Positions 153 to 50,019 of a stretch of 64,000 nucleotides of DNA are shown piece by piece (position 1 is the first letter of the stretch; every line of letters begins with the position of its first letter). The DNA is from Betaproteobacteria bacterium (lineage in GTDB: Bacteria > Pseudomonadota > Gammaproteobacteria > Burkholderiales > Burkholderiaceae_A), in the NCBI GenBank assembly GCA_016868305.1, contig VGHK01000006.1:2573-66572 (forward strand), written 5' to 3'. The translations under genes and the position numbers were made by a program. The notes under the pieces are model-generated. The model was given only the letters and a program-made list of their open reading frames with translations. It had not been told where the DNA came from and made no database searches.

Positions 153-461
153 ATGCTTTTCGCCTTTATCCTATTAGATAAGCCTGATTCCAAGGTTCTT
201 CGCCAACAGCACCGCCCCGCCCATAAGCTCTACCTCGGGCAGGTAGCCCAGCAGATTGCATTTGCGGGCCCGTTGCATGCAGACGATGGCCAGTCCATGA
301 TCGGTAGCCTTCTAGTCATCGACTTTCCTTCTGTCGCGCATGCGCGCAACTGGTTGTCCCAAGAGCCCTTTACCCAGGCTGGCATCTATGGCCGCACCGA
401 GATATTTCCCTTTTCTAACCTATGGCCTCAGAAGGCTGGATTTCCCAAGGAGACCGCATGA
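153..461 (+). CDS. YciI family protein
   Basis: 102 aa; MLFAFILLDKP...RQQHRPAH, AGPL, GSLLVIDF and EPF motifs typical of YciI; its TGA overlaps the next ATG (ATGA at 458-461). Confidence 0.85.
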   Translation: MLFAFILLDKPDSKVLRQQHRPAHKLYLGQVAQQIAFAGPLHADDGQSMIGSLLVIDFPSVAHARNWLSQEPFTQAGIYGRTEIFPFSNLWPQKAGFPKETA

Positions 462-1336
462 CCAAAAAATATGCGCTGTTAAGCGATAGGGCGCCCTACA
501 GCCCTATTGTGGGTAGACCCGCTTTAAGACTTCCCAGTGGAAAAAAGCTGGCGGTCTGGGTAATCGTTAACGTGGAGCACTGGACTATCGCAGGGGCTAT
601 GCCACGCACCGTATTGCCGCCTCCTATGGGCCAGACGCTGCTACCCGACCTGGCCAACTGGTCCTGGCATGAATACGGCATGCGGGTAGGCTTTTGGCGC
701 ATATTCGACGCCCTGAAGCAGCGTGGCATTCGTCCGACCATGGCTGTCAATGGCATCGTCTGTTCTAGCTATCGCCCCATTGCCGAGGCTGCACATAAAG
801 AAAACTGGGAGTTCATGGGCCACGGCTATCTTCAGGGCCCTATGCACCGGCTCGAAGACCAGTACCGCGAAATTGAAAAGACCGTTACTGCAATCAAAGA
901 GATTACCGGTAAAGGGCCGGTGGGCTGGGAGAGTCCGGGTCTCACCGAAACCGATACGACCCTCGACTATCTCTCTGCCAACGGCATTCGGTATCTGGCC
1001 GACTGGGTCATTGACGACCAACCGTGTTGGATAGAGGCAGAGCCCCAAAAGATGGTCTCGGTACCATATACGGTTGAGCTTAACGACATTCCGGTATTTG
1101 CCCTCCAGAACCACAGTTCTGATGAGTTCTACAAGCGCGGGGTACTCCAACTCGAGCGCATGGTAAAGGACAGCCAGACATCTACCCGTGTTATGGCAAT
1201 CAGCGTACACCCTTACCTCACGGGTGTTCCTCACCGTATCGCTGCGTTCGAAAAGTTCTTAGACCTAGTGATGCAAGAGAAAGATGCCGAGATCATGACC
1301 GGAGAAGAGATCTATCGCTGGTTTATCGGCCAGTAA
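458..1336 (+). CDS. Polysaccharide deacetylase-fold hydrolase (PuuE allantoinase-like)
   Basis: AVWVIVNVEHW, WHEYGMRVGFWRI, HGY, GWESPG and SVHPYLTG motifs. Start moved from 422 to the ATG at 458 (AAGGAGA upstream, ATGA coupling to yciI). Confidence 0.8.
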   Translation: MTKKYALLSDRAPYSPIVGRPALRLPSGKKLAVWVIVNVEHWTIAGAMPRTVLPPPMGQTLLPDLANWSWHEYGMRVGFWRIFDALKQRGIRPTMAVNGIVCSSYRPIAEAAHKENWEFMGHGYLQGPMHRLEDQYREIEKTVTAIKEITGKGPVGWESPGLTETDTTLDYLSANGIRYLADWVIDDQPCWIEAEPQKMVSVPYTVELNDIPVFALQNHSSDEFYKRGVLQLERMVKDSQTSTRVMAISVHPYLTGVPHRIAAFEKFLDLVMQEKDAEIMTGEEIYRWFIGQ

Positions 1337-1352
1337 AAGCGTCTGTCGGAAT

Positions 1353-1388
1353 AAAAAAACAGGGCCCCCGCGCGCAGGCGAGGGCCCC
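1353..1388 (-). terminator. Probable intrinsic terminator of the LLM gene
   Basis: GGGCCC..CGC/GCG..GGGCCC stem (1362-1387) preceded by A7 on +, which reads as a U-tract on -; lies between convergent genes. Confidence 0.6.
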
Positions 1389-1413
1389 AATTTGAGGTGA
1401 GAAAACAGTCAAA

Positions 1414-2541
1414 TTAAGCTGCGACAGCAACCGGTGCCTTCTTCTCTTTGGCAATTGCGGCATTGACGCGTGGCATAACCTGTTCTGCCATCAGTTGCAT
1501 CGACTTCTTGCCGAGCACTGGGTCTTGCCAATCGTGGCACGGATAAAGCAGCGTACCGAAGTCACCGACCTGTTCGCGAAAGGCCAGAATCTGGTCAACA
1601 ACACTGTTGACCGAACCCGCGAAAACCAGCTCTTTGGTCATGCGGTCGGGTGTGATTGCCTCATCAGGCTCGTTCTGGTCCCGCTTAAACAGGTTAGACC
1701 GCCCACCAAACCCTACGAGCTTACGAATAAGTTGCTTGAAGTAGAAGTGATAGGGGCCGTCAGAGGAATGCCCATAGCGTTGGGCAAGCTTGTCATCGCT
1801 TTCGGTAACAAAAATACTACGCGCCACGCGCCAATTCGCGGGATCCGCGGGGCGACCGCCCTCGGCACACCCTTGCACATAGCTGGGCCAATGAGACTTT
1901 ACCCAGTCAGATAGTAAGAAGTTGGCCGATATGGGCTCCCACCCGCGCGCGGCTGCACTGGCAACACCCTTAGAGAAAGGGGCCACAGCGGTAACTACGA
2001 TAAGGGGGTGCGGCTTCTGATATGGGCGCAGGATGATCCCTTGACCAATCTCTGGAATCATCGTCCTTGCGGTGGTTACCTTGAAATACTTACCTTCGAT
2101 GTTATACGGCGCCTCAGACTCCCAGATCTTTAGAACCGTGTTTATGCCCTCGACGAACATCTCAAGCCGGTTCTCGACATCGAGGTTGCCAAAGACCTCC
2201 ATGTCAGACTTCAGCCCGCCAGGGCTGATGCCCATAATGAATCGCCCTTTGAGCATATGGTCGAGCATGGCTACCTGGGCCGCAATTGCCGCAGGGTGGC
2301 TGTTTGGTACGTTGATCGTGCCGCTACCAAGCATGATCTGCTTGGTACTAAAGGCTAGACTACTAAGAAACATTAGGCAGGACGTTACGTTTTCGGCTAG
2401 GTCGGTGACATGTTCGCCGACATAGGCCTCTGAATAGCCCAGTTCGTCGGCGAGGATGATCGCCTCCCGATCCTCTGCAAGGGTCTCAAAAGGCTTTCGA
2501 GTGGGGGGATGCAGAGGCATCATGAAAGTTCCAAGCTTCAT
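1414..2541 (-). CDS. Luciferase-like (LLM class) flavin-dependent monooxygenase
   Basis: MKLGTFMMPLHP, ADELGYSEAYVGEH, HPAAIAAQVAMLDHMLKGRFIMGISPG: bacterial luciferase-fold motifs. Confidence 0.9.
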   Translation of the reverse strand: MKLGTFMMPLHPPTRKPFETLAEDREAIILADELGYSEAYVGEHVTDLAENVTSCLMFLSSLAFSTKQIMLGSGTINVPNSHPAAIAAQVAMLDHMLKGRFIMGISPGGLKSDMEVFGNLDVENRLEMFVEGINTVLKIWESEAPYNIEGKYFKVTTARTMIPEIGQGIILRPYQKPHPLIVVTAVAPFSKGVASAAARGWEPISANFLLSDWVKSHWPSYVQGCAEGGRPADPANWRVARSIFVTESDDKLAQRYGHSSDGPYHFYFKQLIRKLVGFGGRSNLFKRDQNEPDEAITPDRMTKELVFAGSVNSVVDQILAFREQVGDFGTLLYPCHDWQDPVLGKKSMQLMAEQVMPRVNAAIAKEKKAPVAVAA

Positions 2542-2634
2542 TGTTTACCGCTCCTGTACAAGATTTTTGGGCGTGAGACTTACCAACCTAACGAAATCCC
2601 GATATACAACAACTAAAAACCATCGTATTCTCTG

Positions 2635-2654
2635 TTGATCTAAAGATCAATAAC
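2635..2654. promoter_or_regulatory. Putative operator, site A (TTGATC-TAAA-GATCAA-TAAC)
   Basis: Perfect inverted repeat in the divergent LLM / dehydrogenase intergenic region; near-copies in four other promoter regions. Confidence 0.6.
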
Positions 2655-2684
2655 AGATTTCCCTTAGACAGAAGGCATATTCTA

Positions 2685-3677
2685 ATGCAGCGCAACAAAT
2701 CAACCGTCGGCGTCGTGGGTCTGGGTATTATGGGGTCTGCCATAGCCTCAAACCTTCAAAAGGCTGGATTTTCAGTCATGGGCAGTGACCCACGGGCTAG
2801 CCAGCGCAAACTCATGGCCTCCAAGATTTCTGTGGTCACGGGCATCAACGCAGAGGTACTGGCCCATAGTCGGCTTCTTATTACCTCGTTGCCGTCGGCA
2901 AAGTCGCTCTTTGCTGTCGCCGAAGAGCTCATAGCAGCGGTCTCTGCGGGGAAACAAAAGTCGAAGGGTCCAGCTGCCATCGTTGCAGAGACAAGCACCC
3001 TGAGCCTGGAAGACAAGGTTTATGCCCGGGATATCTTTGCCAAAGGCAATATTGAGATGCTCGACTGTCCGCTTTCGGGAACGGGTGCCCAGGCTCAGAA
3101 CCGAGACCTAACCGTGTTCGCCAGCGGCTCAGCCACGGGTATCAGGGCATTTATGCCGGTATTTAAGGGCTTCTCAAAGACCCAGTTCAACGTAGGTGAA
3201 TTCGGCAGCGGGATTAAGACTAAATGGGTGGCAAACCTTCTGGTTGCAATTCACAACATCTCCACCGCCGAGGCGCTTTTGTTTGCCCGTGAGCTTGGGC
3301 TCGATATGTCCACGATTGTTGATGTCCTGGCCGATGGGGCCGGGTCTTCGCGCATGCTGCAGATCCGAGGTCCTTCAATGGTGCGTCATAACTGGCAGCC
3401 CGCCGCCATGAAGGTGGGAATATGGAAGAAGGACATGACGATTATCCAGACCGTTTTACAGTCTCTTGATATACCGGCGCCGCTCTTTCAGGCGAGCCTT
3501 CCCATATATGCCGCCGCCATGTCTCAGGGCCTTGAGGCCGACGATACCGCAGCGGTCTTTGAGGTGCTCGAAAGGCTTGCTGGAAAGGTCGCCACCGAAA
3601 AATCTGGCAAGACCGACGGCAAGAGAAGTCCCGCGGGCACGGCTAAGGCCTCCAAGACCAGAAAGTCTTCGACATGA
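2685..3677 (+). CDS. NAD(P)-dependent oxidoreductase, 3-hydroxyisobutyrate/6-phosphogluconate dehydrogenase family
   Basis: GVVGLGIMG Rossmann motif, DCPLSGTG, K..ANLLVA; Lys/Ser-rich C-terminal tail. Confidence 0.88.
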   Translation: MQRNKSTVGVVGLGIMGSAIASNLQKAGFSVMGSDPRASQRKLMASKISVVTGINAEVLAHSRLLITSLPSAKSLFAVAEELIAAVSAGKQKSKGPAAIVAETSTLSLEDKVYARDIFAKGNIEMLDCPLSGTGAQAQNRDLTVFASGSATGIRAFMPVFKGFSKTQFNVGEFGSGIKTKWVANLLVAIHNISTAEALLFARELGLDMSTIVDVLADGAGSSRMLQIRGPSMVRHNWQPAAMKVGIWKKDMTIIQTVLQSLDIPAPLFQASLPIYAAAMSQGLEADDTAAVFEVLERLAGKVATEKSGKTDGKRSPAGTAKASKTRKSST

Positions 3678-4201
3678 AGTATTCCGACTCTATGGCGAAT
3701 CCCTCTGATACAAAAGCCTTTCGAGCCGCGCTGGGACGATTCCCCACTGGGGTTACCATTATTACGGGCAGAGATCCAGATTCTGACGCTGCTGTTGGTC
3801 TTACCGTAAGCAGCTTTAACTCGCTGTCTCTAACGCCTCCGCTGGTACTCTGGTCTATCTCGGTAAAATCGCCAAGTATCAGCGCCTTCACCGTTGGCCG
3901 CGCGCATCTTATTCATGTGCTGCACGCAGGGCAGTCTGAGCTCGCGCGACACTTTGCAACCCCAAAGCCCGATAAGTTTGAGGGTGTGTCTCTTAAGCCC
4001 ACCACCGACCCATCACGTTCGCCTGAGCTATCAGAGAGCTGTGTCGTTTTTGACTGTGTAACCGACAAATTTATCGAGGCCGGCGACCATTTTCTGGTGA
4101 TTGCGTCTGTGCGCCAGTACCGGGGTTGTGATGCCGACTCTTTGCTGTTTTGCAACAGTCAGTTTTTGTCGGTTGATGCACTTTCCAGGATTACCGAATA
4201 G
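3674..4201 (+). CDS. Flavin reductase family protein
   Basis: FRAALGRFPTGVTIIT, GLTVSSFNSLSLTPPLVLWS, AGDHFLVI motifs. Confidence 0.92.
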   Translation: MKYSDSMANPSDTKAFRAALGRFPTGVTIITGRDPDSDAAVGLTVSSFNSLSLTPPLVLWSISVKSPSISAFTVGRAHLIHVLHAGQSELARHFATPKPDKFEGVSLKPTTDPSRSPELSESCVVFDCVTDKFIEAGDHFLVIASVRQYRGCDADSLLFCNSQFLSVDALSRITE

Positions 4202-4378
4202 ACGATTTGGCTCCAGCAATAAATAGCGCCACCGCATCTTCCACTTTTTGGTAAAACCGAGGAAGACTACCGGATTTAAAGATGTTAGACCGGACTGCCC
4301 AATAAAACATGATTCCATGAAGATTCCAGGCTACCTCGATCTCCCGTGGAAGAACTGACTGTAAGTTAGAAAGTCATA

Positions 4379-5614
4379 ATGAAAAGAGCAATCGTGGTTG
4401 GAGGTTCCATGGCTGGACTATTTGCTGCGAATCTGCTTCATCGCAGTGGCTGGCATGTGGATGTCTTTGAGCGGTCAAAGGCTGCGCTATCCGGTCGTGG
4501 TGCAGGAATAGTTACCCACGACGGCCTTTTGTACGCCCTGCAGGCAGCCGGTGCTCAGGTCGATGATGCTCTGGGTGTGGGGATTCATAAGCGACTAGCT
4601 ATATCCAAAGCCGGAGACCCTTTCGCCTACTGCGATTTCGAGCAGGTTCTTACTTCTTGGTCACGTCTTTTAGGCTATCTGAAAGAGGCCTTGCCTGATC
4701 CGCACTACCATTTGGATGAAGAGGTTGTAGAAGTGCAGCCCGGTACTTCTGAGGCATTAGCGCGGGTTACCTTTGCGAGCGGCGAGTCTCTGACTGCCGA
4801 CCTAGTAGTGGCCGCCGATGGCCTGAAGTCGTCTCTTAGGCGTCAGCTTCAGGTCCCGTTTCGCCAGGTCTATGCTGGATATGTTGCCTGGAGGGCCGTC
4901 TGCGACCTGTCGGTGCTCTCGGACAACACGCGGCGGCTTATGGGGGATACCTTTCTCTTCTCCCAGCTTCCCGGAGAGCAGATTCTTGCCTACCCGATCG
5001 CAGGTCCTCAGCGAGCGGATCAGATTCTGGTGAATATGGTCTGGTATCGGCGCACCCCAGAAGACCAGCTCCGAGATCTTCTTACCGATGAACAGGGGGT
5101 CTGGCATAGCGAGGGAATACCTCCCCATAAAATTCGACATTCCCATATCGACAAAATGCGTACCAATGCGGTCGCGCTTTTCCATGCCTCTTGGGCGGAA
5201 CATCTGGAGAAGTCTGATTCCATCATTCTGCAGCCGATATTCGATAGCGAAGTGGAGACGATGGCCACGGGCCGTGTTGCCTTTATTGGTGATGCAGCCT
5301 TTGTAGCCCGGCCCCATGTTGGACAGGGCGTTACGAAGGCAGCAGGAGATGCCCTGTGTCTCGCCAAGACCCTGCGCGACGCAGCCATGGGGGATATTCC
5401 GAAGGCGCTCACGGCCTTCTCCGAGGCGCGTATGCAAGTTGGCCGTATGGCGGTAAACCATGCGAGGCAGATGGGGGCCCCCGTCGTTATCAGTCCTCTG
5501 TTAGAAGATGGATCGCACTGGCAGGCTTATTACTCAGACCCCGAGAACCTTATCCGAGATACCGCTGTAGAGCTTGAGGGTGTGGTGCGCAAAGATGAGG
5601 GAATCCTGCATTGA
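4379..5614 (+). CDS. FAD-dependent monooxygenase, 2,6-dihydroxypyridine 3-hydroxylase (DHPH)-like
   Basis: VVGGSMAG, ERS..LSGRGAGIV, ADG, YAGYVAWR, AYPIAG, NMVWY, GRVAFIGDAAFVARPHVGQG: pattern of the DHPH family. Confidence 0.8.
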   Translation: MKRAIVVGGSMAGLFAANLLHRSGWHVDVFERSKAALSGRGAGIVTHDGLLYALQAAGAQVDDALGVGIHKRLAISKAGDPFAYCDFEQVLTSWSRLLGYLKEALPDPHYHLDEEVVEVQPGTSEALARVTFASGESLTADLVVAADGLKSSLRRQLQVPFRQVYAGYVAWRAVCDLSVLSDNTRRLMGDTFLFSQLPGEQILAYPIAGPQRADQILVNMVWYRRTPEDQLRDLLTDEQGVWHSEGIPPHKIRHSHIDKMRTNAVALFHASWAEHLEKSDSIILQPIFDSEVETMATGRVAFIGDAAFVARPHVGQGVTKAAGDALCLAKTLRDAAMGDIPKALTAFSEARMQVGRMAVNHARQMGAPVVISPLLEDGSHWQAYYSDPENLIRDTAVELEGVVRKDEGILH

Positions 5615-5686
5615 AGCCCCCTTCCGAGTCCATTCTGTATGAAACTGCTTTAAATCAAACCTATCTATTTTTATAAAGGGAAACCT

Positions 5687-7810
5687 ATGACGGGATTGCA
5701 TGTTGGCGTCGATATTGGAGGCACCTTCACCGATTGTGTCGTGATCACAGAGAAAGGATCGGTGGTGACAACAAAGTCACCCTCGACCCCGCCGCACTTT
5801 GCCGATGGCATGGTGTCGGCCATGGAACTTGCAAGTGCAGAGCTTGGGCTTGTCTTTAAGGATTTCTGCCAGAAGATATCCGTCCTGACTCATGGCACAA
5901 CGGTGGGTACCAACGCCTTGATTCAGCGCAGGGGGGCCAAGGTCGGCCTGATTACTACCAAAGGCCATGAGGATGCCATTCATATCATGCGTGGCTCGCG
6001 GGGTGTTACCTCGCGGAACCTCAACCAGGTAGTGCACTTCCCTGAGAGCCAGAAGCCGGTTCCTATCGTGCCAAAGAAGTGGGTGCGTGGCGTCTCAGAG
6101 CGGGTCGACTGCATGGGGGAAGTGATCGTCCCCATCAACAAGGACGATGTAGAGCAAGCAATTACCGAGTTATTAGACCAAGGCGTTGAGGCTATCGCGG
6201 TCTGTCTCTTGTGGTCATTTAAGACGCCTGCCCACGAGCGTTACATTAAGGAACGCATTCTCAAGCGGGCCCCCGACATGTTTGTTTCGTGCTCGGTCGA
6301 TCTGGCGCCTAAGTGGGGGGAGTATGAGCGTATGACTGCAACGGCACTAAACGCCTACATTGGCCCAGTGACCTCGGACTATCTGAAAAAGCTCGACCTG
6401 CGACTGAAGTCGGCGGGCTATACCAAGCCGCTACAGATTACGCAGTGCGGTGGCGGCTCTATTTCAGTAGAGAGGGCAATCGAAGCCCCACTGCTTACGC
6501 TCGACTCTGGCCCCGTATCTGGCGTCACCGGGTCGCAGTTCTTGGGGCGCATACTGAACATCGACAACGTGATTACCACCGACATGGGGGGCACTTCGTT
6601 TGACGTGGGAATTATTCATGCTGGCCAGCCCTCGTTCAGCTTCATGGCTAATGTGGCCCAGTATGAGTACTTTATTCCTAAGGTGGATATCCAGGCGATC
6701 GGCTCGGGTGGCGGGTCTTTGGCAGTGGTCGATCGTCTTACAAAGACGCTACGGGTCGGTCCAGAGTCCGCGGGTGCCAATCCAGGGCCTGCATGCTATG
6801 GCAAAGGTAACGAGACGCCTACAGTGACCGATGCTGATCTCGTGCTTGGCTATATTGACCCCGATAATTTTCTGGGCGGAAAGATTGTTCTCGATAAGGG
6901 GAAGTCTGTCGCCGCGGTACAGCGGGTTGCCGACCAGCTCGGTCTGAGTCTGTACGAGACTGCGGCGGGAATCGCAAAGATCGCCGAGTTTAAGATGGCC
7001 GATATCATTCGCAAGACTACGGTCGAAAAAGGCTTAGACCCGCGCGACTTTTCGCTTTTCGCCTTCGGAGGTGCAGGCCCGGTGCATGCGGGTATTTTTG
7101 CCCGTGAACTGGGCGCCCAGAAGGTTCTGGTTCCCCTGAACCGTGTTGCCTCAACCTGGTGTGCCTTTGGTGCGGCAACCGCAAGCCTGTTGCATATTCA
7201 CGAGCGGGTTGAGATCCTATCTTCACCATTTCAGATCAAGCAGGTCAATGCCGTGCTGGCAGAGCTCTACGCTGCTGCCAGCAAGCAGATGGGCGCCGAC
7301 GGTATTCCCGCCTCGGGCCGCCGGTTTCAGTTCTCGGTGGATATGCGGCACCGGGGCCAGATTAATGAGGTGGAAGTGCCTCTGTCCGATGACGCGGTGA
7401 AGGCCGGTATGAAGCTCGCCGACAAAGACCTTGCTGCATTAATCGAGCGGTTCTATGGTCGCTATGAGGCCATTTATGGCCGGGGGTCTTCGTACCGTGA
7501 CTCTCGACTCGAGATGGTGACCTTCCGCCTGCGTGCCATGGGTGCCTCGCGCACGGTCACCCTGCCAATGGCTAAGCGAAGCGCGGCAGCCATTAAGGAG
7601 AAGGCCAAGACCGGAAAGCGGAAGGTCTATTGGACGGACCTTGGCAAGCAGATGATTACACAAGTTTATAACGGCGAGCTGCTTGATTATGGCAATACTG
7701 TTGCTGGTCCTGCCATTGTAGAAACTAGCCACACTACCATTGTTGTCCATCCCCAGCAGAAGCTGCTCGTGGATGCCTACGGAAACTTTGAACTGAAGCT
7801 CGGGAGATAG
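5687..7810 (+). CDS. Hydantoinase/oxoprolinase subunit A (ATP-binding)
   Basis: GVDIGGTFTD, THGTTVGTNAL, DMGGTSFDV, GSGGGS, GPESAGANPGPACY, FGGAGPVH. Confidence 0.93.
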   Translation: MTGLHVGVDIGGTFTDCVVITEKGSVVTTKSPSTPPHFADGMVSAMELASAELGLVFKDFCQKISVLTHGTTVGTNALIQRRGAKVGLITTKGHEDAIHIMRGSRGVTSRNLNQVVHFPESQKPVPIVPKKWVRGVSERVDCMGEVIVPINKDDVEQAITELLDQGVEAIAVCLLWSFKTPAHERYIKERILKRAPDMFVSCSVDLAPKWGEYERMTATALNAYIGPVTSDYLKKLDLRLKSAGYTKPLQITQCGGGSISVERAIEAPLLTLDSGPVSGVTGSQFLGRILNIDNVITTDMGGTSFDVGIIHAGQPSFSFMANVAQYEYFIPKVDIQAIGSGGGSLAVVDRLTKTLRVGPESAGANPGPACYGKGNETPTVTDADLVLGYIDPDNFLGGKIVLDKGKSVAAVQRVADQLGLSLYETAAGIAKIAEFKMADIIRKTTVEKGLDPRDFSLFAFGGAGPVHAGIFARELGAQKVLVPLNRVASTWCAFGAATASLLHIHERVEILSSPFQIKQVNAVLAELYAAASKQMGADGIPASGRRFQFSVDMRHRGQINEVEVPLSDDAVKAGMKLADKDLAALIERFYGRYEAIYGRGSSYRDSRLEMVTFRLRAMGASRTVTLPMAKRSAAAIKEKAKTGKRKVYWTDLGKQMITQVYNGELLDYGNTVAGPAIVETSHTTIVVHPQQKLLVDAYGNFELKLGR

Positions 7811-7812
7811 TC

Positions 7813-40106: not shown

Positions 40107-40108
40107 GG

Positions 40109-42152: not shown

Positions 42153-42719
42153 ATGGGGCTAAAGTTTCTGGAGCATCTCCTCATTCTCACGCATGACCCT
42201 GAAGCCACTCGTGACTGGTTTTGCAAGAACCTCGGTTTTCGCGAGGGGGATCATCCCGACTTCGGGTTTCCTGTCCACTGGCTCTACATAGGCAATCAAG
42301 ACGTCATTCATATCGGCAAGGCGCGTCATTCAGAGCACCAGAACACCTATTTGAAGGCGCCAAACGATAAGGATGGCCAAGACTTTTCTGCTGCCGGAGC
42401 CTTGGGTTCTGGTCGTATCGATCATCTCTGCATTAACTGTGACGACCTTAAAGGATTTATTCAGCGACTAACCGATAACGGTGTTGAGTTCAATGAGCGT
42501 AAGGCGCACAACTCCAATCTCTATCAGTTGTTCATGCGCGAGCCCATTAACGGTATTAAGGTCGAACTGAACTTTGCCTGGCATGAGGCCGTGGCAATGG
42601 GCAGGGTGCCGGGCTGGACCGACGATGGTCAAAACGACAAGTCAGTTGCCGAAGTCTTTAAGGAGTCTCGGTTTAACGAAAAATATCTCAACAAGTCAGA
42701 AGAAAAGGTGACCGTATGA
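42153..42719 (+). CDS. VOC / glyoxalase family protein
   Basis: LEHLLI, LGF..G.HPDFGFP..WL, IDHLC, QLF..EP.NGIKVEL. Start set at ATG 42153 behind GAAGGAG. Confidence 0.85.
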   Translation: MGLKFLEHLLILTHDPEATRDWFCKNLGFREGDHPDFGFPVHWLYIGNQDVIHIGKARHSEHQNTYLKAPNDKDGQDFSAAGALGSGRIDHLCINCDDLKGFIQRLTDNGVEFNERKAHNSNLYQLFMREPINGIKVELNFAWHEAVAMGRVPGWTDDGQNDKSVAEVFKESRFNEKYLNKSEEKVTV

Positions 42720-43699
42720 CACAGGCAGTCGTAGCGCGCGTCCATCAACCGGGTGAGCCAGATGTCATAAAACTCCAAGAAATAAACCTTCCCGACCCCG
42801 GGCCGGGAGAGGTCACTATCCGCCACACGGCAATCGGCCTGAACTTTCAGGATGTCTATATGCGCAGTGGGCTCTATCCTGGGCAGCCCCCGTTTGGCCT
42901 GGGAAATGAGGCCGCTGGTGTCGTCGAAAAAGTGGGGTCGGGCGTTTCAGACTTCAAAGAGGGCGATCGGGTCTGCTATGCCAGTGGCCCGGTATTCGAT
43001 GCCTATTCCACCCGAAGAAACTTTCTCGCTGCGCGACTGCTGCACACTCCCGATGGCGTAAAAGACGAGCAGGCCGCGGCGATCTTGCTCAAGGGAATGA
43101 CGGTTGAGTACCTCATGCAGCGTTGCTTTCCTGTGCAGTCAGGAATGTCGGTCCTTTTTCATGCTGCTGCCGGTGGTGTAGGCCTCTTGGCCGGGCAATG
43201 GGGTAAAGATCTGGGCGCTCGCATGATCGGGGTCGCAGGAGGCCCAGAGAAATCCAAGATCGCCCTCGAAAATGGCTACGATGTCTGCCTTGACAGGAAG
43301 ACAGAAGATATTGCTGCTCGGGTTAAAGAGCTCACGGGGGGCAAGGGGGTTCCCGTCGTTTTCGATTCGGTGGGCAAGGACAGCTTCGATGCATCCCTGA
43401 ACAGTCTGGCCCCCCGAGGCTATTTCGTCTCTTTTGGCCAGACTACGGGTCTTCCGCCCCCCGTTACCGGGGCAATGCTACAGAAGCTTGGCTCTTTGTA
43501 TTTCACCCGCCCAACCCTAGTGACCTATACGGCAGATGCTCAGGAAATGCGCGATTCCGCAGCCCTGGTTTTTGACCGTTTGCAGCGGGGCGTACTGAGG
43601 CTGTCCATCAACCAACGGTATGCCCTAAAAGATGTTGTTCAGGCCCATCGGGACCTGCAGTCAGGCAAAACCTCAGGATCAACCATTATCACCCCTTAA
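42716..43699 (+). CDS. qor: Quinone oxidoreductase
   Basis: IGLNFQD.Y.RSG.Y, GNEAAG, LLKGMT, HAAAGGVG, VFDSVGKD, SLYFTRP. Confidence 0.9.
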   Translation: MTQAVVARVHQPGEPDVIKLQEINLPDPGPGEVTIRHTAIGLNFQDVYMRSGLYPGQPPFGLGNEAAGVVEKVGSGVSDFKEGDRVCYASGPVFDAYSTRRNFLAARLLHTPDGVKDEQAAAILLKGMTVEYLMQRCFPVQSGMSVLFHAAAGGVGLLAGQWGKDLGARMIGVAGGPEKSKIALENGYDVCLDRKTEDIAARVKELTGGKGVPVVFDSVGKDSFDASLNSLAPRGYFVSFGQTTGLPPPVTGAMLQKLGSLYFTRPTLVTYTADAQEMRDSAALVFDRLQRGVLRLSINQRYALKDVVQAHRDLQSGKTSGSTIITP

Positions 43700-43763: not shown

Positions 43764-44075
43764 TCAGGTGGGGGTCGCATCTCCCCCCTCGACAATCACC
43801 AGCTCTACGACGCCGCCGCCATCGCGGCGAAACCCGGCAGCCTTTTGATACTCCTGCGACTCAAAGCAGCCCTTAGCGGCAGCAAGGCTCGGGAATTCAA
43901 TGACTACGAAGCGCGCGAAATTCTTGGGCCCTTCGAGAACTTCGTATTTTCCCCCTCGGGCCAGTACCTTGCCATGATGCTTTGCAATGATTGCTGGAAC
44001 AAGGTCTGTGTAGCGTTTATAACGCTCCCAGTCATCAATACGAGATCTGGCTACCCAGTAGGCAGGTGCAGTCAT
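43764..44075 (-). CDS. DUF1330 family protein
   Basis: Y.RY, GGKYEVLEG, VVIEFPS..AAK..F.S.EYQ. Confidence 0.9.
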   Translation of the reverse strand: MTAPAYWVARSRIDDWERYKRYTDLVPAIIAKHHGKVLARGGKYEVLEGPKNFARFVVIEFPSLAAAKGCFESQEYQKAAGFRRDGGGVVELVIVEGGDATPT

Positions 44076-44122
44076 GAGTCAGTCTCCTTTAGGGGTGTAT
44101 TGCTGTCAAAGAACGCCTGAGG

Positions 44123-45490
44123 CTACTTGTTTGAGAAGACATACTCTGGAAGCCAGGTTGCAATAGATGGAATAAACCAGATGGTAATGACCACAATAAG
44201 CAGGCATAACCAGTAAGGAATCGAGTATCGGAATATCTGACCTACAGTGATCTCGTTAGGGGGCAGGGAGGCCTTTACCGTGAATACAAGTATGCCGAAT
44301 GGGGGGGTAAGTAAGCCCGACTCGATTGCCAGAATGCCAATCATGGCAAAGGCTATGGGGTCCATGCCCGCTGCATGGGCCACCGGCGCAAACACCGGTA
44401 CCGTGATAAGGATAATTGAGATCGAATCGATGAGGCAGCCCAGGACAAACCAAATAGCTACCATAATCAAAATAATCGCCCAGAGATCGAGTCCCGAGTC
44501 AACAAAGATGGTCTGAATGGCACCGGTGATTCCTGTCATAGACAATACCCGAGAGTAAAGCTGGGCACAGAACAGGAGCAGTAGCAAAGGCGCTGAGGTG
44601 CGCCCAACCTGCAGCACGACTTCTCTGATCTCGGAAAATCGAACTCCGCGAATGATTGCGACTACCAGTGCAGAGGCGGCGCCAACGCCCGCGCCTTCGG
44701 TTGGCGTGAACGCACCCATCCATATGCCTCCGAGAATGAAGGCTACGAGCCCCAAGACCAGAACCGTGCCCACTATGGCGCGACCGAGGCTTTCATCCAA
44801 TTGCTCTGACGTAGACTCTTGCTTGGGCTCAGCAGTCTGCATTGGCTGAATCGTTCCAGGGCCTGCACCGACAATGTGGGGCTTAGTGACAGCGGTGAAA
44901 ACAATATAGACGCAGAACAAAAGCGCAAGGAGCAGCCCCGGGCCGACCCCTGCTAAAAACAGCTGGCCGATAGACTGCTCGGTAAGTACCCCCCATACGA
45001 TCATGAGCACGCTAGGGGGAATAAGCATCCCTAGGCACGAGCTACCGGCGATACATCCGGCCGAGAAGCCCTTGTCGTATCCGGCACGGCGCATTTCAGG
45101 ATAGGCGATTCTCGAGAAGGCGGCAGCAGCGGCAATACTGACACCCGTGACGAAGGCAAACAGGGCATTGGCGCCTACAGTGGCAAGACCAAGACGCCCC
45201 GGTAGGAATGCGAGCCCTTTGTTTATTAGGGTGAAAATATCCCGGGCGGCACCACTCTGGGCAAGAAACCCCCCCATGAGCAGGAACAGCGGAATAACCG
45301 CAAATACATAGTCGCGCAGCGCCTCATAGGCTGTACTTGAGATGAAGTTAAAGACAACTCCCCAGTCGCCGACCATAAGAAATGCGCCCAAGACCGCCGT
45401 TGTACCGAGCGCAACGGCGATATGCACTCCGGTGAGAGTAAGCAGTAGAACCGTGCCAATTACCACGACCACTTGAAAAGTACTGAACAT
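44123..45490 (-). CDS. dctM: TRAP transporter large permease
   Basis: VIPLFLLMG, GVSIAAAA, LGMLIPPS, LTPPFGILVF. Confidence 0.92.
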   Translation of the reverse strand: MFSTFQVVVVIGTVLLLTLTGVHIAVALGTTAVLGAFLMVGDWGVVFNFISSTAYEALRDYVFAVIPLFLLMGGFLAQSGAARDIFTLINKGLAFLPGRLGLATVGANALFAFVTGVSIAAAAAFSRIAYPEMRRAGYDKGFSAGCIAGSSCLGMLIPPSVLMIVWGVLTEQSIGQLFLAGVGPGLLLALLFCVYIVFTAVTKPHIVGAGPGTIQPMQTAEPKQESTSEQLDESLGRAIVGTVLVLGLVAFILGGIWMGAFTPTEGAGVGAASALVVAIIRGVRFSEIREVVLQVGRTSAPLLLLLFCAQLYSRVLSMTGITGAIQTIFVDSGLDLWAIILIMVAIWFVLGCLIDSISIILITVPVFAPVAHAAGMDPIAFAMIGILAIESGLLTPPFGILVFTVKASLPPNEITVGQIFRYSIPYWLCLLIVVITIWFIPSIATWLPEYVFSNK

Positions 45491-45523
45491 AGCAAGAGCC
45501 TTTAGCGGGAGGAGATTGCAGCG

Positions 45524-46048
45524 TTAGTGGCTTGACGCCTTGAAAAAGTCTTCTGAGTGCGTGGGGTTCACAAGAGCCCGCAGGGCATGCCATGACAAGA
45601 TAAGATATTGGGTAATGGCCAGGGCAGAACCGATGACCACCATAAATCGGGCGGGCCAGCTCGGGATGCGTAATGCCCCCTCTCCCTCAAACTCGCCAGA
45701 TACCCACGATCTTGCGGCGAGGTCTAGCCCGCCATAAAAAATAATGAAGAAAAATCCAACACCAAGCAATGACCCAAAGAGAGACACCAACGCCTTAGGC
45801 CGAGTAGAAAGGCGCGTTACAAAGACATCTACCGCGATCATGCCACCCGAGCGAATCGCATAGGCGGCCTGCAGGAAGCATATAAGGACGACCGACGCCT
45901 CTACCATCTCCTTGGTGCCCTTCACGGGGCTTAGAAAGATGCCGCGCCCAATGACGTCGGCCACAATTAGGAAAGAAATAAGCAGGGCCAATGATGCGCC
46001 AATGACGAGAAACGACTTTATGACCCAGTTGTTCGTTGCTTCAAACAT
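45524..46048 (-). CDS. dctQ: TRAP transporter small permease
   Basis: ADVIGR, G.I.VDV, P.WP.R; start set at ATG 46048 (AGGA upstream). Confidence 0.85.
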   Translation of the reverse strand: MFEATNNWVIKSFLVIGASLALLISFLIVADVIGRGIFLSPVKGTKEMVEASVVLICFLQAAYAIRSGGMIAVDVFVTRLSTRPKALVSLFGSLLGVGFFFIIFYGGLDLAARSWVSGEFEGEGALRIPSWPARFMVVIGSALAITQYLILSWHALRALVNPTHSEDFFKASSH

Positions 46049-46080
46049 CGGCGTAATCCTGTCTTGAGAAGAAAACAAAT

Positions 46081-46115
46081 GGGCCTTCAGGCAACCGGAA
46101 GCTGCATGAAGGCCC
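46081..46115 (-). terminator. Intercistronic hairpin between dctP and dctQ (stabiliser or partial terminator)
   Basis: GGGCCTTCA / TGAAGGCCC stem followed on - by ATTTGTTTTCTTCT. Confidence 0.55.
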
Positions 46116-46140
46116 AGGAGAAGATTCGTTACACCAAGAG

Positions 46141-47223
46141 CTACTGAATCTTATAGCGAACGGGCCACTTATGGCCGGCTTTTTCGGCCTCTTCCAGGGT
46201 GGCCTTCAAAACCTGGCTCGCAGGTAATCCCTGCTTGTCCAACGAGCTAGCCATTTCTTGGGGCCATCCGGCCAAAGAGTTGGCCCATTCGAGCCGAACC
46301 GATGGGGGCACTGCGGTTATCTGGGTTCCGAGTTCCTTTAGCTGAGCGATCTGCTTGGGGTAGTTCTCTTGGTTTACCTTACCCGTGCGAAGCTCGTATT
46401 CACGAGCAACTTCGGCAATGATAGCCTGCACGTCTTTGGGCAGTGCATCCCAGCGGCGCTTATTAATGGTGAGCCCGTGCCAGGTAATCGACCCGAAGCC
46501 AATCTCGGTGTAATACTTACCTTGTTCGTAGAGCTTAAAGTTTACCCATGCTGAAGGAAACATAATCCAGCCGTTGTAGACCCCGGTTTGCATACCCTGG
46601 TAGGCCTCGTTTAGGGTTCCTTGCACGGGGATGGCCCCAACATACTCAAGCCATTTCAGGTTTAGGCCTGCTCCAGCAAGCTTAACGCCCTTGAGATCGG
46701 AAACCGATTTCCAGGGCATTGTGGTTCCCAGGTTGTAGCCGTTGTCTGCGATGATTCCCAGAAGCTTCTGGTTCCATTTTTCCTCAAAGACATTCGACAG
46801 GTATGGCACCCTGTTGTATACCGCCCGCGCAACCTTCAGGCTCATTTCCGCATCCATGGTGCCAAAGGGCAGCATTACCTGGAAGGCATGCAGAGGCAGG
46901 TTGGAGGGCTCAAAGCAGAAACAGAATGCGCCCAGATCGATAATGCCGGACTGCACGCCCTCAAGGGTGTCGGGCAGCTTTACCATCGCACCACCATAGC
47001 CCTCGATAAAGTTAATGGTGTGGGGGGTACGCTCTTTCACCCTTTTGGTAACTTCCGGAACAAAGAAGGTATTTAAGAGGTTGACATAGGTGTTCACGAC
47101 AGGGTGACCCGACGCGATTCGCATTGTGATGTTCTCGGCCTTCTGGGCGTGAGCCGCGCCCGTACCGAGAAGCCCCACCATCGCGCTTATTGCGACAAAA
47201 AGGCCTAGTTTCTTAAATTTCAT
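46141..47223 (-). CDS. dctP: TRAP substrate-binding protein (third, unrelated to paralogs 1 and 2)
   Basis: Signal peptide; EAYQGMQTGVYNG; start set at ATG 47223 behind GGAGGAG. Confidence 0.85.
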   Translation of the reverse strand: MKFKKLGLFVAISAMVGLLGTGAAHAQKAENITMRIASGHPVVNTYVNLLNTFFVPEVTKRVKERTPHTINFIEGYGGAMVKLPDTLEGVQSGIIDLGAFCFCFEPSNLPLHAFQVMLPFGTMDAEMSLKVARAVYNRVPYLSNVFEEKWNQKLLGIIADNGYNLGTTMPWKSVSDLKGVKLAGAGLNLKWLEYVGAIPVQGTLNEAYQGMQTGVYNGWIMFPSAWVNFKLYEQGKYYTEIGFGSITWHGLTINKRRWDALPKDVQAIIAEVAREYELRTGKVNQENYPKQIAQLKELGTQITAVPPSVRLEWANSLAGWPQEMASSLDKQGLPASQVLKATLEEAEKAGHKWPVRYKIQ

Positions 47224-47349
47224 GGTTGGAACTCCTCCGTAAGAATAGACATCAAGATATGAAACGACACTGGAGAGTTTTTGCTTGACCGCTCTCTGCG
47301 TCAATTAGGGTTAGTAAGGGGAAAAGGGTTTGTCGCGCTGATCATTTGA

Positions 47350-48573
47350 TTAGCAGACTACCTGTCGTTCTCCATTGTGGGTGACCGCCACCTGTGCCGG
47401 AAGTTTCGAGCTAAGCGCGGCGTGCAAATAGCAGGTATTGGCAGAGATGGCGAGCAGTCGTTGCATCACTGAGTCGTCTTCTTCACCGTGCAGGAATAGA
47501 TGGGTATCCACAGGCGAGGCCTGCCCCGCAAGGCCACCGTGCGCGTCGCTATGGAGACCGAAGGGGTTGAACTGCACAAGTCGAATTGCCCGCACCTTGT
47601 ACTTCAGGTATTCGGCGTACCGAAGCAGCTGGGTCATGTAACAAAAAGCGATTCCCGCAGAGAGCAGGGCAAGACCAGAGGGCGCAGTGGGGCTGGCTAA
47701 CGCATTCTCGTGGCTAAGGAAAGAAAACTCGCTGCCCGGGGGAGCCTTCAAGGTGGTTTGAATTGTGGTCTGTCCTTTGCCAAGGGTAAGAGCCGACCGC
47801 CCAAGAACCTCCAGCCCAAATCGCGTAGAAGCGGAGGGCATTGCCTCGTTTGGCGGAATGTAGTCAGAGGTTTTCGAGATCAGATTTGTGGCATCTTGCC
47901 CATCTGCAACCGGCCGGGGCGGGCCCGCCCGCGACTTTAAGGGGTCTTGCGCATCTGGGGCCTCGGAGGCCTTGGCTCCGGTGACCTCACGACGTATGCC
48001 ATTGACATACAGCGCAAAGGTACAGTCCAGGGGGTGTGCCATTGCTGCAAGCGCGCACGATTGCCGCACTGCGTCATGGATGAGCGATGCGGCCAGCTTC
48101 GCGGTGCAGTTTCCCTGGCTGACGATTTCGATCTCAGCAGGTGCGGCCTCTCCCTGGCCTGTGCCAGCATAAAAGGACCCACTGAAGGCATATCGGTTGA
48201 TCAGGGTCTGACTTACGGAAGACAAAGGAGTTCCGCGCGAGAGGTTAAGCCGGTCTATGGCACCGAGAAGATCGGCCTGAAGCCCGGCGTTAAAAAACCC
48301 CAAAGGAAAGGGCGCAAGGTCAGAGCCTTTGAGCTGCGGGCCTTCGTCGCTCACGACCCGCCAGCGGGGGCCGTTGGTGCCCTCGGAGATAACCGCCTCT
48401 TTCTGATGGGCTCCCAAGGCACGCGCCTCGACCTTAAGACAAGCGGCATCGGGAGCCCCTTCGAAGAGCCTGGGGCGGTCGGACTGGCGATGCACGCAAA
48501 AAGCGAGAGGATGTCCAGAGGATTGGATGCTATCTTCCACTTCAATCAATGCGGGCTCCTTGCTGCGTTGCAT
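47350..48573 (-). CDS. Tandem two-domain OsmC/Ohr-like protein
   Basis: Two repeats of an SDE..L.G...AP.P..AG..C pattern; the C-terminal domain has AFCY and NTCY cysteines. Confidence 0.7.
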   Translation of the reverse strand: MQRSKEPALIEVEDSIQSSGHPLAFCVHRQSDRPRLFEGAPDAACLKVEARALGAHQKEAVISEGTNGPRWRVVSDEGPQLKGSDLAPFPLGFFNAGLQADLLGAIDRLNLSRGTPLSSVSQTLINRYAFSGSFYAGTGQGEAAPAEIEIVSQGNCTAKLAASLIHDAVRQSCALAAMAHPLDCTFALYVNGIRREVTGAKASEAPDAQDPLKSRAGPPRPVADGQDATNLISKTSDYIPPNEAMPSASTRFGLEVLGRSALTLGKGQTTIQTTLKAPPGSEFSFLSHENALASPTAPSGLALLSAGIAFCYMTQLLRYAEYLKYKVRAIRLVQFNPFGLHSDAHGGLAGQASPVDTHLFLHGEEDDSVMQRLLAISANTCYLHAALSSKLPAQVAVTHNGERQVVC

Positions 48574-48637
48574 ACCGTGAGGGTACTAGAGAAGGCACTA
48601 TTCAACCTGTTATGTTCGTCATATGATTACACCAGTA

Positions 48638-48655
48638 ATTATCAAAAGATCAATA
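48638..48655. promoter_or_regulatory. Putative operator, site E (ATTATC-AAAA-GATCAA-TA)
   Basis: Half-sites identical to site D; in the divergent OsmC-TRAP / cupin region, immediately before the cupin SD. Confidence 0.5.
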
Positions 48656-48665
48656 GGAGAAAACC

Positions 48666-49253
48666 ATGGCTTCTTGGAAAGAGATTCGGGTTATCAGTAA
48701 AAAAGAAATGATGGGCCGCGTGGCCCGGTTCAAAAAGCTAAAGGGCTCCGATGGGGGACTCCCCGATAGCCCACTTCCCGAGTCCCAGCGCAAGCTATTT
48801 GCGGTAATTGGGTTTCAGCCTCCCAAAAAAGGAAATAACGCCACGACATCGCCGGTGGGCGATGATGCGGCAACCAAGCCAGCCATTCCTATTGCCGAAG
48901 GTTTTAACCTCGGCTACTGCAAGGCTAAGCCTGGTCGGGGCCCTCTCATGCACAACCATGACACCAATGAGACCTTTATTGCCCTGACAGGGCAGTGGCG
49001 CTGCGAATGGAATGAAGGCAGCCATAAACAGCATATTGACTTGAACCCCTACGATGTCATCTCTTTCCCGCCAGGATGCGCCCGTCGGTTTATGAATATC
49101 ACCAAAGGCGAGCCAGAGACAGAGCACCTGTTAATGTTCGTCATCGGGGGCAATGCGCCGAAGGCTGAGTTCACCCCATTGGCCATGCAGCGTTGCATGG
49201 AGTTTGCGGCAGAGCAGAAAAAACAGTCTCGAAGACCTAAAGGTAGGGCTTAG
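48666..49253 (+). CDS. Cupin domain protein
   Basis: GPLMHNHDTNETF (H-x-H-x3-E), LNPYDVISFPPG..R.F.N. Confidence 0.85.
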   Translation: MASWKEIRVISKKEMMGRVARFKKLKGSDGGLPDSPLPESQRKLFAVIGFQPPKKGNNATTSPVGDDAATKPAIPIAEGFNLGYCKAKPGRGPLMHNHDTNETFIALTGQWRCEWNEGSHKQHIDLNPYDVISFPPGCARRFMNITKGEPETEHLLMFVIGGNAPKAEFTPLAMQRCMEFAAEQKKQSRRPKGRA

Positions 49254-50019
49254 CCCAGCCTATCCCAGCCTCGGGGGTCGAGGCGGGTCGATATTCGCAG
49301 CCCACGGTGCCGTTGTAGCCAAGCGACGTAAGTTCTTGGGCGATTCGTACGAAGTCTAGCTCGCCCCGGTCTGGCTCCGTCCGGTCGGGTACACCCGCCA
49401 CTTGAATATGGCCAATATCCTGCCTAAGCAAACGGAGATTCGTAATGATGTCGCCATGCAGAATCTGCTGGTGATAAAGATCAAACTGGATCTTAAGTGC
49501 CGGGTGGTTCACCCTGGCGAGGGTCTCTTTGGCATGGGGAAGACTTGCCATAAATGCGCCTGGTGCATCGCGAGGGCTTAATGGTTCAATGGTTACCAGA
49601 ATATTGCGTGGGTGGGCCGTTGCGCAGGCCCAGGCAAGGTTCTTCTCGTACGTTTCTTGTTGCGCTGCCTCAGAGCTCCCTCCTGCAGCCACAGGGCCGG
49701 CAGTCGCGTGAATCAGGGGAACATCCAGGGCCAAGGCATAGGTAAGGGCCTGATGAAACAGCTTTTGAAACTCAGTTTCTTTGCCGCTCCATGCGGCAAG
49801 TCCGCGCACTGCAGCATCCGCGCTGGATCCGGAGGGGGTATTGATAAGCGCAAGTGAGAGCTGGTTGTCCCTGAGCCCGCGCTTCCAGTCTTCAATCGAG
49901 GCTGCGTAGGGGTTAAGAGACTCCACGCAGCGAAAGCCAGCATTTGCTGCAGCCTTTAGGCGTTGGTCTAAAGGCAGTTCTTTCCAGAGCCAGTCAATAT
50001 TGGCAGAGAGTCGAATCAT
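49237..50019 (-). CDS. Hydroxypyruvate isomerase family (Hyi/OtnI-like) protein
   Basis: LSANI..L, GF..VE, TIEPL, QFDLYHQQ, HIQVAGVPDR.EPD.GE, GCEYRP. Confidence 0.9.
   Translation of the reverse strand: MIRLSANIDWLWKELPLDQRLKAAANAGFRCVESLNPYAASIEDWKRGLRDNQLSLALINTPSGSSADAAVRGLAAWSGKETEFQKLFHQALTYALALDVPLIHATAGPVAAGGSSEAAQQETYEKNLAWACATAHPRNILVTIEPLSPRDAPGAFMASLPHAKETLARVNHPALKIQFDLYHQQILHGDIITNLRLLRQDIGHIQVAGVPDRTEPDRGELDFVRIAQELTSLGYNGTVGCEYRPASTPEAGIGWAKPYL

Follow-up and report, generated by a model that had tools for sequence, protein, structure and literature searches.

Why does a bacterium with a 2.26-Mb genome carry 45 consecutive catabolic and transport genes without an intact regulator among them, and do these genes make up one pathway? 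The question is raised by a stretch of 64,000 nucleotides (hereafter the window; C6:2573-66572, contig VGHK01000006.1) of a metagenome-assembled genome (MAG) of a Betaproteobacteria bacterium (GCA_016868305.1; G000 below), which is 97% complete in 97 contigs and whose nearest public loci come from freshwater Burkholderiales and Burkholderiaceae MAGs. The original prediction, made from the sequence alone, described positions 153-50019 as an orphan supercluster free of regulators and as a funnel for cyclic amides, N-heterocycles or alkaloid-like compounds. The explanation that we favour, with moderate confidence, is that this block is a lineage-specific, modular catabolic island formed around an orphan core, that it is largely wired to one TetR operator and that its own repressor gene has been deleted.

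Based on the list of open reading frames (ORFs) and Pfam scans, the block consists of 45 consecutive genes for enzymes, TRAP transporters and small accessory proteins, arranged in 18 strand blocks and coding over 94.4% of its length (2,800 bp are non-coding). Pfam recovered every family that had been named there, including the hydrolases, the three oxygenating systems and the three TRAP binding proteins, for which only two DctQM pairs are present. Housekeeping genes were correctly said to be absent: they begin at 52160 with IspH, followed by FKBP-type isomerase, RidA, RecG, LysR and others. No intact helix-turn-helix (HTH) regulator, transposase or integrase domain was found in the block by Pfam, an Rfam scan over the whole window returned zero families, and the largest gaps of the block contained no plausible small hidden gene.

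One gap of the block, however, holds the remains of a regulator. The 177-bp interval at 4202-4378, between the flavin reductase and FAD monooxygenase genes, is the position at which an intact TetR-family gene lies in two sister species, G004 (240 amino acids (aa)) and G012 (230 aa), and in the isolate LSUCC0117 (L049); the intact orthologue has a TetR_N domain (52.6 bits). Here only the 3' end is left. It matches residues 163-213 of the G004 protein (71% identity) and, after a change of reading frame, residues 211-239, and alignment with G004 and G012 reveals a clean 493-bp deletion that removed the HTH and the start codon. The nearest relative, G008 (90–98% amino-acid identity in modules E and F), has lost the in-cluster gene more completely and retains a gap of 61 bp; the deletion is therefore real in the lineage and not an assembly error. 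A TetR_N repressor is encoded together with the genes it would regulate in G004, G012, G007, G022 and G043 but not here, and the regulator-free state of the block is, as judged from these alignments, secondary. The claim that no regulator, transposase or integrase is present therefore holds for intact genes and overlooked the remnant, while the reading of that absence as a design feature fails, the cluster's TetR gene having been deleted in the lineage. Moreover, only ~5 LysR-type and 2 TetR-type regulators were found among the ~2,080 ORFs of the genome, so that 45 genes in a row without a regulator are not improbable here.

A second TetR (type 2) is encoded at C12:55951-56580, on another contig of the same genome, where it adjoins genes for a Liv-type ABC transporter, a VOC protein and an FAH-like protein. 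It is 60% identical overall to the in-cluster protein (type 1) and ~80% identical in the HTH, and the helix SQPLLYRYF is the same in both. The nearest characterised structure to the TetR is Mce3R (1e-10, HTH only), and no close structural relative was found in the PDB. The two paralogues occur in 7/30 genomes of the genus, including every genome in which cluster genes turned up: both types are present in G004, G007, G022 and G043, apparently type 1 only in G012 and type 2 only in G000 and G008. As a separate observation, the genes flanking the TetR position (2685-5614; 3HIBDH-like, flavin reductase and FAD monooxygenase) share 60–81% amino-acid identity between species, in contrast to 88–97% for their neighbours LLM and HydA/HydB, and this difference holds even in comparison with G008.

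The presumed targets of the repressor are still in place. A palindrome, TTGATC-N4-GATCAA, often flanked by TTA and TAA, is found in five promoter regions of the island, whereas ~0.3 copies would be expected in its 2.8 kb of non-coding DNA (~18-fold enrichment); across the genome there are 15 intergenic matches at ≤2 mismatches. In alignments of 3–6 species, four of the five sites, operator 1 among them, remain as conserved blocks within intergenic sequence that has otherwise diverged; operator 3 has no orthologous region in G004, which lacks module D. Two further copies, at C5:38113 and C12:55833, lie beside genes that are located inside the G012 cluster; the former has one mismatch and is placed between a divergent 3HIBDH-like paralogue and a 2OG-Fe(II) oxygenase gene. 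Among 80 HydB-gamma loci of other species, the palindrome was present at the module-A promoter in 12/13 TetR-positive loci examined and in 0/28 TetR-negative loci. Because of this co-occurrence we take it to be the operator of this TetR family, to which the repressor would bind. Operator 1 is identical in G012, in G000 and in G008, whichever type of TetR is kept, which suggests that either paralogue could serve the sites. The five sites could control ~28 of the 45 genes, and these genes, together with the two loci on C5 and C12, probably form one regulon.

Linkage of the core extends well beyond the genus. We examined the neighbourhoods (±10 kb) of 80 homologues, at 70–92% identity, of HydB-gamma, so named for the carboxylase gamma-type zinc domain fused to the HydB C-terminus (Pfam, NCBIfam and PDB). 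The window genes that recurred were HydA (69/80), 3HIBDH-like (37/80), PuuE-like (33/80), LLM (15/80), flavin reductase (13/80), ACMSD-like (13/80), FAD monooxygenase (12/80) and GST1 (11/80). At least 11 loci, several from Casimicrobiaceae, carry a compact same-strand run of CocE, GST, (ABC transporter), ACMSD-like, HydA, HydB-gamma and PuuE-like genes, and orthologues of GlcG, GFO, glyoxalase, cupin and CocE1 are also found near HydAB in distant Burkholderiales. The core that recurs beside HydA/HydB-gamma outside the genus thus comprises PuuE-like, LLM, flavin reductase, FAD monooxygenase, ACMSD-like, CocE and GST genes. The module A gene set with an intact TetR is present in G004, G012, other Burkholderiales and LSUCC0117, a cultured BAL58 isolate that carries a more distant relative of the core operon. 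The two-gene HydA/HydB-gamma form occurs in >400 species genomes, and a literature search for the core gene combination found no description. This neighbourhood check had been suggested with the original prediction; it confirmed linkage for the core genes but not for the amidase, ABH1/2, the FrsA-like hydrolase, any TRAP gene, OYE, IlvD/SDR/FAH/Ldh2, the OsmC-like protein or the isomerase, none of which was ever linked to the core outside the genus.

Within the genus, the block occupies a variable slot between ispH and a tRNA-Thr(CGT) gene located ~65–140 bp to the left of window position 1, with the island on the 5' side of the tRNA gene. The interval between the two genes measures 18 bp in G009 and contains 4.2 kb of unrelated genes in G003, two complete congeners without the island, and so the ~52 kb present here fill a variable slot; the same core flanks with variable or empty content between them are a feature of flexible genomic islands. 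GC content is 54.4% in the island, 57.6% in the flank and 58.4% genome-wide, and because an offset of ~2–4 points below host GC is repeated in each related species, the island has aged with its hosts. The features of an integrase-mediated, tRNA-linked island were absent, as Pfam found no integrase or transposase domain and no repeat of the tRNA-Thr gene or of its flank exceeds 12 nt. The last gene of the slot, at 50060-51961, encodes a polytopic membrane protein of 633 aa whose C-terminal domain resembles spermidine synthase (no Pfam match at 1e-3); it belongs to the variable slot and does not lie between ispH and tRNA-Thr in G009 or G003. To the left of the tRNA gene and outside the window, C6:1-2400 has a GC content of 51% and looks like a second variable region; its products are one protein with a SET domain, one that resembles GNAT/Acetyltransf_6 and one, from a Cys-rich ORF, without a family.

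The contents of the slot differ between species. In G004 and G007 the cluster is colinear beside ispH but lacks module D (28894-35253; CocE2, DctP2, ABH3, AKR and ADH), while in G008 the right-hand part lies beside ispH and module A on another contig. In G012 the cluster is found in another chromosomal context, and modules A and B are parted by a different 16.5-kb insert that encodes a second Mo-hydroxylase, FAH-like, VOC and nitroreductase-like proteins, a 3HIBDH paralogue, a 2OG-oxygenase, a Liv-type ABC transporter and ABH3, AKR and DctP2 homologues. Several of these insert genes are found elsewhere in the present genome, on contigs C5 and C12; at C5:37108-39262, for example, the genes for a 3HIBDH-like paralogue and for a 2OG-Fe(II) oxygenase are divergently arranged, and the same pair lies inside the G012 cluster. 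Orthologues of the 766-aa amidase were detected in only 4 or 5/24 congeners, all cluster-bearing, and in one genome of another family. The absence of module D from G004 and G007 and the different insert of G012 speak against one fixed pathway. Separately, we noted by eye, without a domain scan, that ~5 kb from the G012 cluster (L018, G012:C263) there are genes at 4875-6267, one with a tyrosine-recombinase/integrase-like N-terminus and one resembling a RelE/ParE-type toxin; the G000 locus has no mobility-related genes.

Table 1. Features of the island and its border, in window coordinates.
Feature	Position	Strand	Content, conservation or evidence
Whole accessory island	153-51961		45 catabolic/transport genes and the membrane/spermidine-synthase-like gene
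Module A, conserved core	153-10131		YCII, PuuE-like, LLM, 3HIBDH-like dehydrogenase, flavin reductase, (TetR remnant), FAD monooxygenase, HydA, HydB-gamma
PuuE-like polysaccharide deacetylase	422-1336		Pfam
LLM	1414-2541	minus	Pfam
Candidate operator 1	2635-2650		TTGATCTAAAGATCAA; LLM / 3HIBDH-like intergenic; identical in G004, G008, G012, L025, L027, L028
Flavin reductase	3674-4201		Pfam
TetR-family repressor gene remnant	~4126-4373	minus	3' end only; deletion junction 4359/4360
FAD monooxygenase	4379-5614		Pfam, PDB
Hydantoinase A (HydA)	5687-7810		Pfam
Hydantoinase B (HydB)	7813-10131		Acetone_carb_G domain fused; Pfam
Module B	10241-16776		Alpha/beta hydrolase, 766-aa amidase, alpha/beta hydrolase, FrsA-like hydrolase, ACMSD-like decarboxylase; Pfam, PDB
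Four alpha/beta hydrolases	at 10241, 13549, 14399, 32212		Pfam
Amidase, 766 aa	11121-13421		Pfam
Amidohydro_2 protein (ACMSD-like)	15640-16776		Pfam, PDB
Candidate operator 2	16831-16846		TTAATCAATCGATTAA; ACMSD-like / CocE1 operon intergenic; footprint in G004, G007, L028
Module C	16977-28890		CocE1, GST1, 3HIBDH-like 2, DctM/Q, CoxG/M/S/L-type Mo-hydroxylase, DctP1 (one 10-gene plus-strand block); then OYE (minus); Pfam
Two CocE/NonD hydrolases	16977-18728 (CocE1), 28894-30648 (CocE2)		Pfam
CoxG/M/S/L-type Mo-hydroxylase	22262-26630		Pfam
Three DctP	at 26667, 31017, 46141		Pfam
Module D, variable	28894-35253		CocE2, DctP2, alpha/beta hydrolase (ABH3), aldo-keto reductase (AKR), Zn-ADH
Candidate operator 3, weaker	30839-30854		TTGATCAACTAATCAG; CocE2-OYE / DctP2 intergenic; 2 mismatches
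Module E	35272-43699		GST2, GlcG, Gfo/Idh/MocA / FAH / IlvD/EDD dehydratase, SDR / Ldh_2 / glyoxalase, Zn-ADH; Pfam, NCBIfam
Candidate operator 4	42042-42057		ATTATCAGATGATCAA; upstream of glyoxalase-ADH operon; conserved in G004, G008
Module F	43764-50019		DUF1330, DctM/Q/P-3, 407-aa two-domain OsmC-like, cupin, xylose-isomerase-fold isomerase; Pfam, NCBIfam
Candidate operator 5	48638-48653		ATTATCAAAAGATCAA; OsmC-like/TRAP-3 operon / cupin intergenic; conserved in G004, G007, G008
ispH	52160-53149	minus	Right border of variable slot; first housekeeping gene; Pfam; synteny with G004, G007, G008, G009, G003

Taken together, these results are best explained if the island was assembled stepwise in the ispH/tRNA-Thr slot around an older, Burkholderiales-wide and functionally uncharacterised operon. 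That core encodes an ATP-dependent hydantoinase/ketone-carboxylase-type enzyme (HydA and HydB-gamma), a PuuE-like hydrolase, two oxygenases (an LLM enzyme that forms a two-component system with the flavin reductase, and a DHPH-like FAD monooxygenase), an enzyme resembling 3-hydroxyacid dehydrogenases and the TetR repressor. Hydrolases, the ACMSD-like decarboxylase, the Mo-hydroxylase, three TRAP binding proteins and keto-acid-processing enzymes would then have been added as modules within the genus, many of them behind promoters with the same 16-bp palindrome, which would have joined them to one regulon. After deletion of the in-cluster TetR here and in G008, the operators, which are still perfectly conserved, are most likely served by the C12 paralogue, a probable substitute because of its identical recognition helix and 60% identity. 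A wider version of this scenario, which we put forward only tentatively, is that the island, the C5 locus (3HIBDH-like/2OG-oxygenase) and the C12 locus (TetR paralogue/Liv-type ABC/VOC/FAH) constitute a ~35–40-gene regulon for one class of organic compounds that are abundant in freshwater. Its key step would fall to a new HydA/HydB-gamma branch of the ATP-dependent hydantoinase/ketone-carboxylase superfamily, the partners (PuuE-like, ACMSD-like, GST and CocE) would define an undescribed pathway, and the loss of TetR would have rewired the regulon to its paralogue.

Several observations weigh against this interpretation. The association of TetR with the palindrome is confounded, since the TetR-positive loci coincide with those that carry module A in full. 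The interval that separates the TetR gene from the gene divergent to it contains no copy of the palindrome and hence gives no sign of classical autoregulation, and, G012 being only 92% complete, its assignment as type 1 only is not certain. Moreover, ~16 genes have no palindrome (the amidase operon, ABH2-FrsA, ABH3, AKR-ADH and GFO...Ldh2), a different motif (CTGAAACRTTGATWA) is common to two of the palindrome-free promoters (37448 and 40892; also at C34:13537), and in other genera modules C–F do not, as modules, accompany the core. One alternative is a patchwork in which independent small catabolic operons accumulated in a slot that tolerates recombination, the AT-rich palindrome being a general promoter feature or the site of a global factor. 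This alternative, which we regard as rather unlikely, has in its favour the 18 strand blocks, the gain, loss and movement of modules between species, the lack of core linkage outside the genus for most module C–F genes, the paralogous FAH/IlvD/SDR/Ldh2 set on contig C27 and the second motif of the GFO and SDR promoters. It does not sit well with the enrichment of the palindrome in island intergenic DNA and its presence at two further sites beside G012-cluster genes, nor with its co-occurrence with TetR across distant lineages. Furthermore, orthologues of CocE1, GST1, ACMSD-like, GlcG, GFO, glyoxalase and cupin recur beside HydAB, so that linkage in other genomes extends to genes from five of the modules (A, B, C, E and F), which is difficult to reconcile with a pure patchwork. 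The unity implied by the term supercluster is thus supported in part, by five promoters with one conserved operator and by the HydAB linkage of genes from several modules in distant Burkholderiales.

Several other sequence elements were noted near these promoters. The motif CTGAAAC[A/G]TTGAT[T/A]A (37448-37462 and 40892-40906) immediately precedes two minus-strand operons, GFO-GlcG-GST2 and SDR-IlvD. G008 has kept it, whereas no copy within one mismatch was found in G004 or G007, and a further regulator, acting on module E, may bind there. Conserved boxes upstream of the LLM gene (CGAAATCCCGATATACAAC, 2590-2610; kept in six species) and between the amidase and ABH2 genes (GATAAACAGCAT, 13439-13460; kept in G004 and G012) could be promoter elements or further binding sites. 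The 195-aa cupin (48666-49253) was considered as an XRE-cupin regulator and rejected, as no HTH was found by sequence, Pfam or NCBIfam.

No enzyme of the block reaches an NCBIfam equivalog cut-off, and the models that are satisfied are broad subfamily or domain models (PRK07236, PRK06131, CocE/NonD and OsmC-Se), which bears out the earlier statements that the block matches no single nameable pathway and that its substrate is not readable from sequence. The nearest relatives of four proteins, the FAD monooxygenase, CoxL, the ACMSD-like protein and the PuuE-like protein, point to N-heteroaromatic acids. The FAD monooxygenase satisfies the PRK07236 subfamily cut-off at 399 bits and has 2,6-dihydroxypyridine hydroxylase as its best PDB match (2VOU, 1.7e-42), with 6-hydroxynicotinate monooxygenase also near; Pfam found no nicotine-specific genes in the window. 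CoxL is nearest to form-II CoxL, quinoline 2-oxidoreductase and 6-hydroxypseudooxynicotine dehydrogenase. The Amidohydro_2 protein, previously listed among the hydrolases, is nearest to ACMSD (1.5e-57, PDB) and hence of a decarboxylase type, not an obvious C-N hydrolase. Cyclic ketones or lactones are indicated instead by the LLM, whose best structural match is the Baeyer–Villiger 3,6-diketocamphane monooxygenase (PDB), by HydB-gamma, whose best match is the delta and beta subunits of acetophenone carboxylase, and by the many esterase-type hydrolases, OYE, AKR and ADHs. Module E contributes an enzyme set of sugar-acid or keto-acid type, and no ligand was assigned to DctP1 or DctP3, which have only distant PDB matches and none under 1e-15.

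More specific identities were tried and rejected. CoxL is not an aerobic CO dehydrogenase (761 versus 950 bits for one form and 514 versus 991 bits for the other; neither the AYxCSFR nor the AYRGAGR loop was found), and the PuuE-like protein falls short of the PuuE allantoinase model (TIGR03212, 103.5 bits versus a cut-off of 424.6). HydA/HydB do not qualify as caprolactamase CapAB (557 and 154 bits versus cut-offs of 1000) or as acetophenone/acetone carboxylase (437 and 200 bits versus 1500; zinc domain fused and no further subunits). An equivalog-level non-phosphorylative sugar-acid route was likewise dismissed for module E (L-arabinonate dehydratase, 595 versus 882 bits), including its hydrolase (L-rhamnonate-route model, 114 versus 500 bits), with only the broad PRK06131 model satisfied.

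On this evidence an N-heterocycle reading is plausible and ketone/lactone chemistry would fit equally well. Under the favoured explanation, the island would process one family of carboxylated cyclic compounds, which would be either N-heteroaromatic acids bearing hydroxyl groups or else cyclic ketones/lactones. Their rings would be hydroxylated, the compounds decarboxylated, the rings activated or opened at the expense of ATP, and the products hydrolysed to keto-acids; against this counts that the chemistry draws on distant, family-level similarities, all below equivalog cut-offs. The dedicated funnel of the original prediction, in which about all 45 genes serve the breakdown of cyclic amides or N-heterocycles (pyridones, lactams or alkaloid-like compounds) and no local regulator was intended, is in our judgement quite unlikely. 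It draws support from the relatives of the FAD monooxygenase and CoxL, from the ACMSD-like decarboxylase, the PuuE-like hydrolase and the amidase, and from HydA, whose best NCBIfam match is caprolactamase alpha. However, all of these matches score far below the equivalog cut-offs, the LLM has a Baeyer–Villiger enzyme as its closest match, the fused domain of HydB is a trait that ketone carboxylases have and lactamases lack, and module E resembles keto-acid or sugar-acid processing; in addition, the block is modular and once had a regulator. Finally, an assembly or binning artefact, with a low-GC 50-kb block from another organism or a chimeric join, might be suspected from the GC offset and the 97-contig MAG but is exceedingly improbable, given that a single contig joins the island to ispH, recG and further housekeeping genes, that the same junction recurs in G004, G007 and G008, related species that were assembled independently, and that island GC tracks host GC in each species.

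Two further observations concern individual genes. The 407-aa OsmC-like protein (47350-48573) satisfies the NCBIfam domain model for an OsmC-related (seleno)protein; its unnamed family has >1,200 homologues in varied catabolic contexts, once beside a TetR and a Rieske dioxygenase, and, with contexts so unrelated and heterogeneous, there is no support from this protein for treating module F as conserved. The longest-ORF starts of DctM1 (19447-21691) and of RsfS (58081-59308 region) overlap the upstream gene, in the latter case NadD, by 95 bp each; the true starts are probably further downstream, for DctM1 because its DctM domain begins only at residue 52.

Streamlined freshwater Burkholderiales are abundant and their diet is poorly known, and the commitment of ~2.3% of a 2.26-Mb genome to one enzyme island suggests that its substrate matters to the organism. 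Our analysis resolves the supercluster into a conserved core set that is also present in LSUCC0117, a candidate operator and two candidate TetR sensors; to identify the ligands of these sensors would be to learn the inducer and, through it, the substrate. The analysis also provides a concrete case of regulator loss with operators retained.

Comparison with characterised systems places the core within known superfamilies. HydA/HydB belong to the same ATP-dependent hydantoinase/carboxylase superfamily as acetophenone carboxylase Apc (PDB 5L9W) and acetone carboxylase Acx, and the HydB C-terminal domain matches the small zinc subunit (ApcB/Acetone_carb_G) otherwise found in carboxylases; unlike Apc/Acx, there are two genes here and not three to five, the zinc subunit is fused and scores are far below equivalog level. 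Caprolactamase CapAB (PDB 6YRA; PMC8453981) has the same two-subunit architecture, and its alpha subunit is the best NCBIfam match of HydA, but CapB lacks the gamma-type domain that HydB has. Enzyme types also match those of pyridine-ring pathways for nicotine, nicotinate and picolinate (DHPH 2VOU, NicC, Kdh, quinoline 2-oxidoreductase and PicC-type), namely a Mo-hydroxylase, a class-A FAD monooxygenase, an ACMSD-family decarboxylase and amidase/hydrolases, at family level only. These pathways differ in that no NicX- or Hpo-type ring-cleavage dioxygenase was recognised here and no match is at orthologue level.

In regulation and setting, the island is one of the known kinds, a catabolic island or TetR regulon. 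In the Escherichia coli Rut pathway, the TetR-family repressor RutR recognises a 6-N4-6 palindromic operator and controls the opening of an amide ring by an LLM-type oxygenase and flavin reductase, by hydrolases and by a step that reduces a semialdehyde. The present system shares with it the TetR and 6-N4-6 palindrome, the LLM-type oxygenase with flavin reductase and the hydrolases. Unlike Rut, it has an LLM without a RutA model among its NCBIfam matches and with diketocamphane monooxygenase as nearest structure, no RutB, RutC or RutG equivalents were identified, its operator sequence is different and its regulon is far larger. Streamlined freshwater Burkholderiales such as Polynucleobacter keep accessory catabolic and transport genes in a few variable slots, as flexible islands that occur in only some congeners, have a GC content below that of the core genome and do not necessarily carry mobility genes. 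The island described here resembles these in all four respects, its variable slot, its restriction to some congeners, its lower GC and its independence of mobility genes, and differs from them in being unusually large for the genome, in encoding almost only enzymes and in having at least five promoters with one operator.

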